DNA of 64,000 nucleotides, taken from the NCBI GenBank assembly GCA_965202585.1, contig OZ241826.1:27714001-27778000 (forward strand), read 5' to 3'. The position numbers and the translations under genes were made by a program. The stretch's first letter is position 1, and each line of letters starts with the position of its first letter. The notes under the pieces were generated by a model, which saw only the letters and a list, made by a program, of their open reading frames with translations, did no database searches and was not told the DNA's origin. Shown piece after piece: positions 30,703 through 32,425 of this stretch. The DNA comes from Thalia democratica (taxonomy: Eukaryota).

Positions 30703-32425
30703 ATGTACTCAAACGAAAAGTATTTAGATGAGACAATCGCACTGTTTCCTGGTCCTCAGAACTACTTGCGCCGTCTGTGCGAAGAAGAAAAGCAAAAGAC
30801 TAAAACTAAAATTGAAAACAAGGTCAAGTATTTTGAAGCGGAAAAAGAAGAATTGGTGGAAGATGCTATGGAGTTGTTTATATGCAACACTTTTGCTCTT
30901 AAAAAATCACTTTCAAAGGATTCCAAGCACGAGCTTCAGTTGTTGGAAAGCGACGATCCGGATAACGATCTGTTGAAAGGATCGCTCGGTTTGAGCGCTG
31001 AAACGAACCAATCAAAAAAATACAAAAACCTTAATATCAGGATTTACAGGGTCAAATCGAATATGGAACGTTGCAGATGTCCGAGTTCGCTGCTTCTGCA
31101 CGGCACCAAAGTAAAAAACGTCGAGGGAATCTTAAGAGAAGGACTGAGACCTTCGTCGTCAGGTAAACATGGCCCTGGCATTTATTTGACAAACAGCTTT
31201 GAAATTGCTCAACGTTACGGTCAAAACTACGCGAAAAACGATGGGAACGCCAAAGACTTGACGTACTTGTTTGTTAGCAAAGTGAAAGAGACGCTAGTAG
31301 GTTCAGGTTGTCTTTGTGGAGAACGTAAAGACGGTCAGTCCGTTAAAACTTGTGAACCATTATTTGATAAGAAGACAACTTCAACTTTGTTTATTAAATC
31401 TTCATACCCGTGTCTTGACTCCAGCTTTAGTTACGAGCCCGTTTTAAAAGTCTACGATGGAAACTCATACTCCAAAAAACAAGTTGAATTCAGAAACTCT
31501 TCAGCCCACAAGTTCGACAGCGACGAAAACAAAATTCTTTCGGGCACGTTTCAAGTAGGCGATGACGAAAAAAGAATATTTGTGGCTCATCATGACCTAA
31601 TAACCCTCGAATACTTAAAAAAAAATCGAAACAAAACAAAGTGCACGCGAGCTTGCAAACCAAATTTTGTATGTCGATCTCAACGAGACCAAGTTTTCAA
31701 AATATCTGCCAACTTCAGATCCGCGAAAAGACGTGTCGATCGAAAACAGTCCTGTCTGTTCTGAAGACTGCTCCATGAACACTTTTGTTGCCGAGCTCGA
31801 AAAAGAAATAAGCGTCAATCAACGGGCAGAAATTGAACTTATGAAGCATCAGTTTGAAAGCAAATTGTACTCTTTTATGCAGCAATTGTTGTTCGATACG
31901 AGCAGCATATCTGAAACCAACGGTTGCGCCAAGTACAAAGCGGAACTGCTGCAAGCTTCAGATTCAGATCACAAGTTTGTGCTCGGGTCGATGACTAAAA
32001 TAAGCCCGAACTCGGCAATCCTGAAAATTTTCAGGATCAACCCAGTCGACGAAGGCGAACAGATACGCGGAGGCTTGCTTTACCTGCAAGGAGTCAAGGC
32101 GAACGAGGTGGTGAACGTTCTGACGAGAGGGTACCCGGCGAACGACAAGGATTTTTTGGAGCAGTGCGAGTGCAGACTCAGTTGTGACTGCTTTGCGTCC
32201 ACCAGCTTGGACATAGAACTTTTGCAAGGAATGAGCCACTGTGTCACGAACGGACAAGTCGGAAAGTTGTCGTTCGTCTTTGTCGCAAGCAAAGGAATAA
32301 GCGCGGACGATGAAGCTTTACCAAACTCCGACACCAGAGGGTGCTGTTTTCAAAGCAACAAAAGAACCTGGCTGCAGCTGATCGGCGTGATTCCAGCTTA
32401 TTTAGTTGTTATTAGCGTTCAATAG
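30703..32425 (+). CDS. Intronless tandem PARP/ADP-ribosyltransferase-domain protein, copy 1 (one +1 frameshift in a poly-A run near 31620)
   Basis: LLLHGTKVKNVEGILREG...GKHGPGIYLTNSFEIA...YLFVSKV...RIFVAHHDLITLEYL carries the H and Y motifs of the PARP fold. ORFs 30652-31764 and 31667-32425 join by comparison with copy 2. The frameshift may be real or a homopolymer error. Confidence 0.8.

Follow-up and report, generated by a model that had tools for sequence, protein, structure and literature searches.

The locus at 30703-32425 raises the question of whether one intronless gene can encode an ADP-ribosyltransferase (ART) followed by its own degenerate copy. In the window, i.e. the whole 64,000-nucleotide stretch of DNA that was analysed, the initial annotation had described a single open frame over these positions, encoding an entire protein of two tandem helix-plus-ART modules with the second apparently dead. 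We found two open reading frames (ORFs) instead, with the frame changing at 31617-31625. The flagged copy is a frameshifted family member in this assembly, and the architecture proposed for it is right at the level of the family. The features of the locus and its surroundings are as follows.

19431-24028: rest of the same duplicated unit as 28955-33221, beyond the LTR element insertion.
28955-33221, no strand assigned: the part of the duplicated DNA unit that carries the gene; identity to close paralogs is about 95%, non-coding flanks included.
30680-30692, forward strand: splice-acceptor-like sequence just before the ATG; a second CAG ends at 30692.
30703-31764, forward strand: ORF1, 353 aa; repeat 1 to residue 305, an out-of-frame tail after it.
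30715-30873, forward strand: helices at the N terminus of repeat 1, spanning residues 5-57 (pLDDT about 90 in the model of L003, an intact paralog).
30916-31617, forward strand: ART domain 1, PARP type; residues 198-241 form a disordered insert, and the frame change shortens the final strand.
31617-31625, forward strand: break in the frame at a run of nine A, where close paralogs remain in frame.
31640-31774, forward strand: former linker, helix 314-325 and then disordered; lies in the ORF2 frame.
31775-32425, forward strand: ORF2, 216 aa, opened by the first Met of the repeat 2 long helix.
31775-31891, forward strand: long helix of repeat 2, residues 358-396 (L003 model).
31925-32425, forward strand: ART domain 2, degenerate (alignment and fold model).
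44466-46159, reverse strand: a further copy of the family within the window, broken and inverted, with about 69% protein identity to L003 and shared flanks at 43676-47971.

The motifs that had been quoted for both halves are in place in the window, except that LEYLI actually reads LEYLKK. Three close paralogs (L003, L004 and L005) are 96.9-97.3% identical in DNA to the flagged copy, and each is a single protein of 573-574 aa; another, L002, is broken at a different place. All four close paralogs aligned differ in sequence from the window at the nine-A run. The difference exceeds run length, which would be easier to explain by a real mutation than by a simple slip in a homopolymer. The break is known from this one assembly, and an assembly error may be its source instead. 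None of the contigs from read runs X1-X5 had the nine-A form, and those from X1 and X3 were also without the private substitutions of the flagged copy where covered (30828, 30898, 31030 and 32316). The X1 and X3 contigs thus seem not to contain the flagged copy and do not separate mutation from assembly error. An intron at the break was ruled out, as the paralogs are co-linear and open there. Because the break truncates the final strand of domain 1 and splits repeat 2 off, the flagged copy is unlikely to yield a working product; it is probably a pseudogene.

The internal duplication was confirmed. The halves are homologous far beyond chance in a BLASTP comparison of ORF1 with ORF2 (E 2e-4), and a profile-profile comparison of repeat 1 with repeat 2 gave 97.6% (E 3.5e-12 in one comparison). 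With deeper repeat profiles the match rose to 99.3% (E 1.3e-20); it spans 207 columns, with the long helix at one end and the last strand at the other, and a reversed control gave 0.1%. Sequence identity between the repeats is 17-22%. Each repeat consists of a long helix and a PARP-type ART domain; compared alone, the two long helices gave no significant match (0.4%), and they align within the whole-repeat match only. The model of L003 (pLDDT 77.8, pTM 0.70) has helices at residues 5-57, ART domain 1 at about 72-312, a loose linker, the long helix at 358-396 and ART domain 2 at 408-573. The segment KHELQLLESDDPDNDLLKGSL, which had been taken for the helix of the module, aligns to PARP3 and is the ordinary first strand and helix of a PARP catalytic domain; a separate long helix lies upstream of each ART domain in the model.

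The two halves behave differently in Pfam. The ORF1 half scored 31.3 bits against PF00644 (cut-off 26.7), and domain 1 matched this family at E 0.01 in all 50 members scanned. The ORF2 half matched no Pfam family, and L003 gives one stretch only. The second half nevertheless adopts an ART fold in the model: domain 2 modelled alone (pLDDT 85.9, pTM 0.86) matched PARP4, PARP3, PARP14, PARP12 and PARP13 in Foldseek with a probability of 1.00 and TM scores of 0.53-0.61. Structural matches of the full L003 model were the catalytic domains of PARP1/2/3 in the PDB; these fold comparisons rest on Foldseek. As had been noted at the outset, no WWE, macro, zinc-finger or ankyrin domain was found by Pfam in any of the 50 members scanned, nor any accessory domain common to them. 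No transposase was found in the family proteins by Pfam.

To describe the active sites we used 77 sequences, comprising 68 intact genome ORFs and nine public proteins. The NAD-binding His and Tyr that had been recognized in domain 1 (His133 and Tyr161) are present in all 77, as is Gly134, and the second Tyr (Tyr172) is present in 73. The catalytic Glu is missing, also as first described, with Ile292 at its position. In the flagged copy His133 lies at 31099-31101, Tyr161 at 31183-31185 and Ile292 at 31576-31578. At the catalytic position 64 of the 77 sequences have Ile, eight have Val and one has Glu. The register of Ile292 comes from an alignment to 17 stand-alone ARTs, of which 10 carry Glu in that column. 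A deeper set has Glu at this position in 4 of 50 sequences, including the distant public members P0039 and P0057, and its retention in these two supports the register. One genome copy, L062 (G000:C2:57035599), has Glu there, and its close relative L065 has Ile. Domain 1 fits an H-Y-I triad (77, 77 and 64 of 77) and not the H-Y-E triad of the poly-ARTs (PARP1/2, tankyrase). H-Y-I is given in the available text of PMC9149570 as the motif of the human mono-ARTs PARP6/7/8/10/11/12. Judged by its residues, domain 1 is likely an H-Y-I mono-ART enzyme.

Domain 2 has Gln in place of the His in the flagged copy, as reported (Gln462, 32087-32089). This substitution does not define the lesion; it is particular to some subfamilies. 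The His column holds His in 26, Arg in 24, Gln in 14, Ser in seven, Asn in five and Tyr in one of the 77 sequences, and His in 21 of the 50 in the deeper set. Tyr occupies the first Tyr column in 29 of 77 and the second in none, the latter being mostly Lys (47 of 77); the flagged copy reads Gln/Phe/Gln at the His/Tyr/Tyr columns (Gln462, Phe497, Gln508). The Gly-rich donor loop is replaced by a Cys cluster in the flagged copy (32165-32191), and a four-Cys stretch takes its place in 23-28 of 50 members from many subfamilies. The catalytic strand is gapped and hypervariable, the loop lying at 32348-32380 in the flagged copy. Some residues are conserved: Glu505 (32216-32218 in the flagged copy), at the place of the small pocket residue, in 72 of 77, Gly463 and Gly509 in all 77, and Asp543 in 47 of 50. 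Read from the alignment, domain 2 has the residue pattern of a pseudo-ART, with His surviving in about a third. This survival, together with the conserved Glu505, means that domain 2 may not be dead everywhere, and pseudoenzyme status is described in the consulted portion of PMC10789625 as hard to establish by sequence.

The family is very large, in agreement with the earlier description of the locus as amplified. Genome searches with each half of the flagged locus gave at least 143 and at least 130 matches, two further repeat-2 queries gave at least 145 and at least 148, and a distant member used as the query found at least 74 other places. Merged, these searches yield at least 313 loci, at least 289 of them on the ten numbered contigs C1-C10 and at least 66 in C7:51-54.6 Mb; all family counts are lower bounds, the best candidates alone having been scored. 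The 1.2 Mb around the window (C1:27.20-28.41 Mb) hold 76 loci with a median spacing of 14 kb, 40 in plus and 36 in minus orientation. Defining an intact locus as one with both halves in one stop-free frame of at least 560 aa, 34 of the 76 are intact and 42 are not. Copies have non-coding flanks in common over kilobases, at about 95% identity among close copies and 75-80% among distant ones, other contigs included; the family has therefore spread as DNA segments. Retroposition as the route of spread is ruled out by these kilobases of shared flank. Elsewhere, G000:C1:92.76-93.02 Mb contains about 19 near-identical copies at about 10 kb spacing in mixed orientation, which is either a very young burst or an assembly effect. 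Near-identical DNA was also seen in four read runs, three from the organism and one from a marine metagenome, which suggests a planktonic animal.

Selection was measured on 34 intact paralogs more than 60% identical to L003 (34 of the 68 intact ORFs); taking intact copies only biases the estimates toward purifying selection. dN/dS was computed with our own code, which reproduced the IQ-TREE one-ratio likelihood. The values were 0.35 and 0.39 for the core parts of ART domain 1, 0.58 for ART domain 2, 0.60 for both helices and 1.06 for the linker. Domain 1 is under purifying selection, and repeat 2 has changed faster. In site models the likelihood-ratio statistic was 44.3 for repeat 2 versus 6.2 for repeat 1. 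When columns within five of any gap were removed, it was 29.5 for repeat 2 (147 codons) and 9.1 for repeat 1 (242 codons). Twenty neutral-plus-purifying sets simulated with heavy recombination reached a maximum of 17.4, so that repeat 2 exceeds all 20 and repeat 1 does not pass. Repeat 2 thus carries positive selection above the recombination null, while the indel-trimmed ART domain 2 alone (12.7) falls inside it, two of the 20 nulls being higher. By alignment, the flagged sites Asp481, Gln508 and the 552-558 loop lie by the degenerate pocket; Tyr379, Gly407, Thr418 and Val470 lie elsewhere, and some selected sites are in the helix or linker and not in the pocket. Trees of the two halves of the same 34 paralogs conflict by 232 and 280 log units, compared with sums of at most 261 in 20 permutations. 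This conflict exceeds all the permutations and indicates that the paralogs are mosaics.

A quick tree of 86 domains placed all 28 domain-2 sequences in one group (support 99) and all 29 domain-1 sequences on one side of a branch (support 53); a branch with a support of 89 splits both sets from stand-alone ARTs, canonical PARPs and Gig2. We infer that a stand-alone ART gene was duplicated internally once, long ago; a tree with such long branches is not proof of this. Closest to domain 1 is a large family of stand-alone ARTs of 210-280 aa in the same genome (profile 99.9%). In a PF00644 search of the genome, the best 150 of 851 candidates were scored, and all 150 were above the cut-off. Among the stand-alone single-exon ARTs (L118-L127, 210-280 aa) many are H-Y-E and some have Tyr or His at the Glu position; in L128 and L130 the ART frame continues into long tandem peptide repeats. 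The genome (G000, 802 Mb) also has seven single-ORF WGR-type PARP genes (L111-L117), five of them strongly diverged and one (L113) without the catalytic His. Its PARP2-type gene has its nearest named relatives in ascidians, and multi-exon connexin matches are numerous (59 of 107 candidates); the animal is therefore likely a tunicate. A cellulose synthase search of this genome gave no hit, which says nothing either way.

Single-exon coding had been taken as a telling feature of the family, but it is shared by all seven of these WGR-type PARPs. The term intronless holds for the coding part only, for 41 of 64 copies have an acceptor-like site among the 50 bases preceding the ATG, compared with 4-17 of 64 for each of seven windows lying further upstream. 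Divergent copies have it in 10 of 17, compared with 2.3 in shuffles. Such a site would be explained by a 5' UTR intron or trans-splicing. In the flagged copy and its three closest paralogs the usual acceptor position of the family is without AG.

Outside this genome, a profile search of 1.84 billion representatives returned 102 proteins at E 1e-30, and 44 public proteins, 10 of them near-copies, contain both repeats. Among 20 hits examined, all 11 two-repeat and all seven stand-alone proteins were nameless and came from metagenome or read assemblies; the two named clusters were Gig2-type proteins of fish and shark. Word-based protein searches gave 15 and 5 proteins, none named. No named protein among the 20 hits has this architecture and no well-annotated orthologue was found, which bears out the view that it is not a standard PARP arrangement. 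A viral structure library gave four matches at E 0.001, PARP-like proteins of giant-virus and iridovirus origin, none with an evident two-repeat architecture, and atlas searches gave ART-like leads only. The family was undescribed in the parts available of the literature on PARP/ART expansions (invertebrates, zooplankton, tunicates, salps) and on tandem ARTs, with subscription journals and supplements lying outside that scope; the gene-family table of a genome paper could list the expansion.

The closest analogue is Gig2 (GCRV-induced gene 2) of fish and amphibians, described in the accessible sections of PMC3617106 as PARP-like, without accessory domains, with 2 or 4 tandem units, expanded in a lineage-specific manner, interferon-induced and antiviral, and as not found in invertebrate genomes. 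Gig2 shares with the present family the tandem PARP-like units, the expansion and the lack of accessory domains, but it is not this family. Its units form their own tree group (support 99; three units, quick tree) apart from the tunicate family. They are highly similar and keep His and Tyr in each unit, among those fetched, whereas in the tunicate family the two repeats share about 20% identity and the second has degenerated. A long helix precedes each tunicate repeat; none was seen ahead of the Gig2 units. With the mono-ARTs PARP6/7/8/10/11/12, domain 1 shares the PARP fold and H-Y-I triad; the family differs from them in having two ART domains and hundreds of loci and in being without WWE, zinc-finger, macro and RRM domains. 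Domain 2 resembles the pseudo-ARTs of PARP13/ZAP and PARP9 in combining an ART fold with lost pocket residues, and PARP13 structures match it. In those proteins, however, the dead domain is the sole ART of a multidomain protein, while here it stands behind an apparently active sister. According to the portion of PMC4038475 consulted, positive selection acts on the apparently inactive domain of PARP13, full restriction of viruses requires this domain, and immune genes are marked by gene gain and loss. The PARP1/2/3 catalytic domain gives the top structural and profile matches, yet the family lacks their WGR, regulatory helical domain and catalytic Glu and forms a separate tree group; the PARP2/3-type genes of this genome are separate from it. 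Kinase-pseudokinase tandems such as JAK likewise pair, within a single chain, an active domain with a dead paralogous one. They belong to another enzyme class, and regulation of domain 1 by domain 2 is putative in the present family.

Turnover, mosaicism and selection suggest a conflict with pathogens. We put at about even the reading that the locus is a frameshifted, likely non-functional copy in a very large two-ART family in which domain 1 likely mono-ADP-ribosylates a target and domain 2, likely dead, is predicted to choose the target or gate the enzyme, probably in pathogen defence. Domain 1 would most likely bind NAD+ and transfer one ADP-ribose to its target. Domain 2, predicted to be unable to bind NAD+ in most subfamilies, would offer a variable surface for target choice or for restraint of domain 1; by analogy with the inactive PARP domain of PARP13/ZAP, it may be a sensor, decoy or regulator. 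The proteins would act in the cytosol, and nothing in the family analysis showed signs of a secreted toxin. The immune role is proposed on the basis of birth-and-death turnover, mosaicism and positive selection in repeat 2, and the best reading of the family is as a repertoire of defence proteins, each likely a mono-ART joined to a pseudo-ART, that turns over by birth and death. A more far-reaching version, which we regard as doubtful, is a chordate repertoire of several hundred sensor-effector ADP-ribosyltransferases. The dead domain 2 would be a variable pathogen decoy or receptor reshuffled by gene conversion, and binding to it would release the conserved domain 1; with the stand-alone ARTs, ADP-ribosylation would then be the animal's main diversified innate defence.

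The case for defence is an evolutionary pattern only, and recognition outside immunity also fits expansion with diversification. The same architecture could have a role, for instance, in telling self from non-self, in gamete recognition, in stress signalling or in the control of transposons, and domain 2 would then be an interaction scaffold; TASOR, a pseudo-PARP in transposon control, is known from a title cited in PMC10450202. We consider such a role unlikely: a housekeeping function would explain less well than a conflict-driven repertoire why there are hundreds of loci, why 42 of the 76 in the cluster are not intact, and why mosaicism and positive selection are seen. Less likely again is that domain 1 is mainly an NAD+ hydrolase or sensor and not a transferase, so that the proteins drain or sense NAD+ with domain 2 as a brake. 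The catalytic Glu is missing in 76 of 77, no known substrate-reading domain was found by Pfam, and some ARTs hydrolyse NAD+ without a good substrate (PMC10789625, in the text available). Yet H-Y-I enzymes are given as mono-ADP-ribosylating in the part of PMC9149570 at hand, and a pure NAD+ sink would need no hundreds of diversified variants.

Domain 2 could be a divergent enzyme, or could lend Glu505 to domain 1, which is without its own Glu, for a composite active site, much as HPF1 completes the site of PARP1 in the available part of PMC10789625. The conservation of Glu505, Gly463 and Gly509, the His in 26 of 77 and Asp543 would all agree with this. We judge it improbable: in the alignment Glu505 falls on the nicotinamide-pocket position of domain 2 itself, Lys mostly replaces the neighbouring Tyr, just 29 of 77 sequences keep the first Tyr, and gaps and hypervariability mark the catalytic strand. 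The most improbable of these alternatives is that the family is a passenger of segmental duplication or of a mobile element with most copies functionless. Multi-kilobase units have indeed spread together with their non-coding flanks and lie in both orientations (40 plus, 36 minus), and more than half of the loci in the cluster are broken. Against a passenger stand dN/dS values well below 1 in both ART domains, pocket residues that are invariant at 30-40% overall identity, the conserved acceptor-like site, the presence of the two-repeat architecture in 44 public proteins and the lack of a transposase in the proteins by Pfam.

Interest in these genes rests on the family and not on the broken flagged copy. 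Against the 17 PARPs of humans, the present genome carries at least 313 loci of a single, undescribed two-domain type, and many stand-alone ARTs besides. If our reading is true, animal ARTs include an enzyme-pseudoenzyme tandem, and the family supplies a small, soluble natural series with stepwise decay of the domain 2 pocket, so that the role of inactive PARP domains could be tested directly. It also has a bearing on innate defence among the invertebrates most closely related to vertebrates.

Other features of the window were recorded as well. A 32-base tandem repeat at 1767-2328 gives rise to a spurious 153-aa ORF. An older LTR element spans 8264-19430, with 714-base repeats that are 94.5% identical; its ORF at 16871-17902 matches the rhabdovirus glycoprotein fusion domain PF00974 just above the cut-off, and by this domain content it is an envelope-bearing retroelement. 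A very recent LTR retroelement insertion occupies 24024-28954, 1.75 kb upstream of the ART gene, and is absent from the flanks of all four close paralogs. It contains ORFs at 24531-25418 and 25589-26917, the latter with an aspartyl protease, and its 716-base LTRs are 100% identical.
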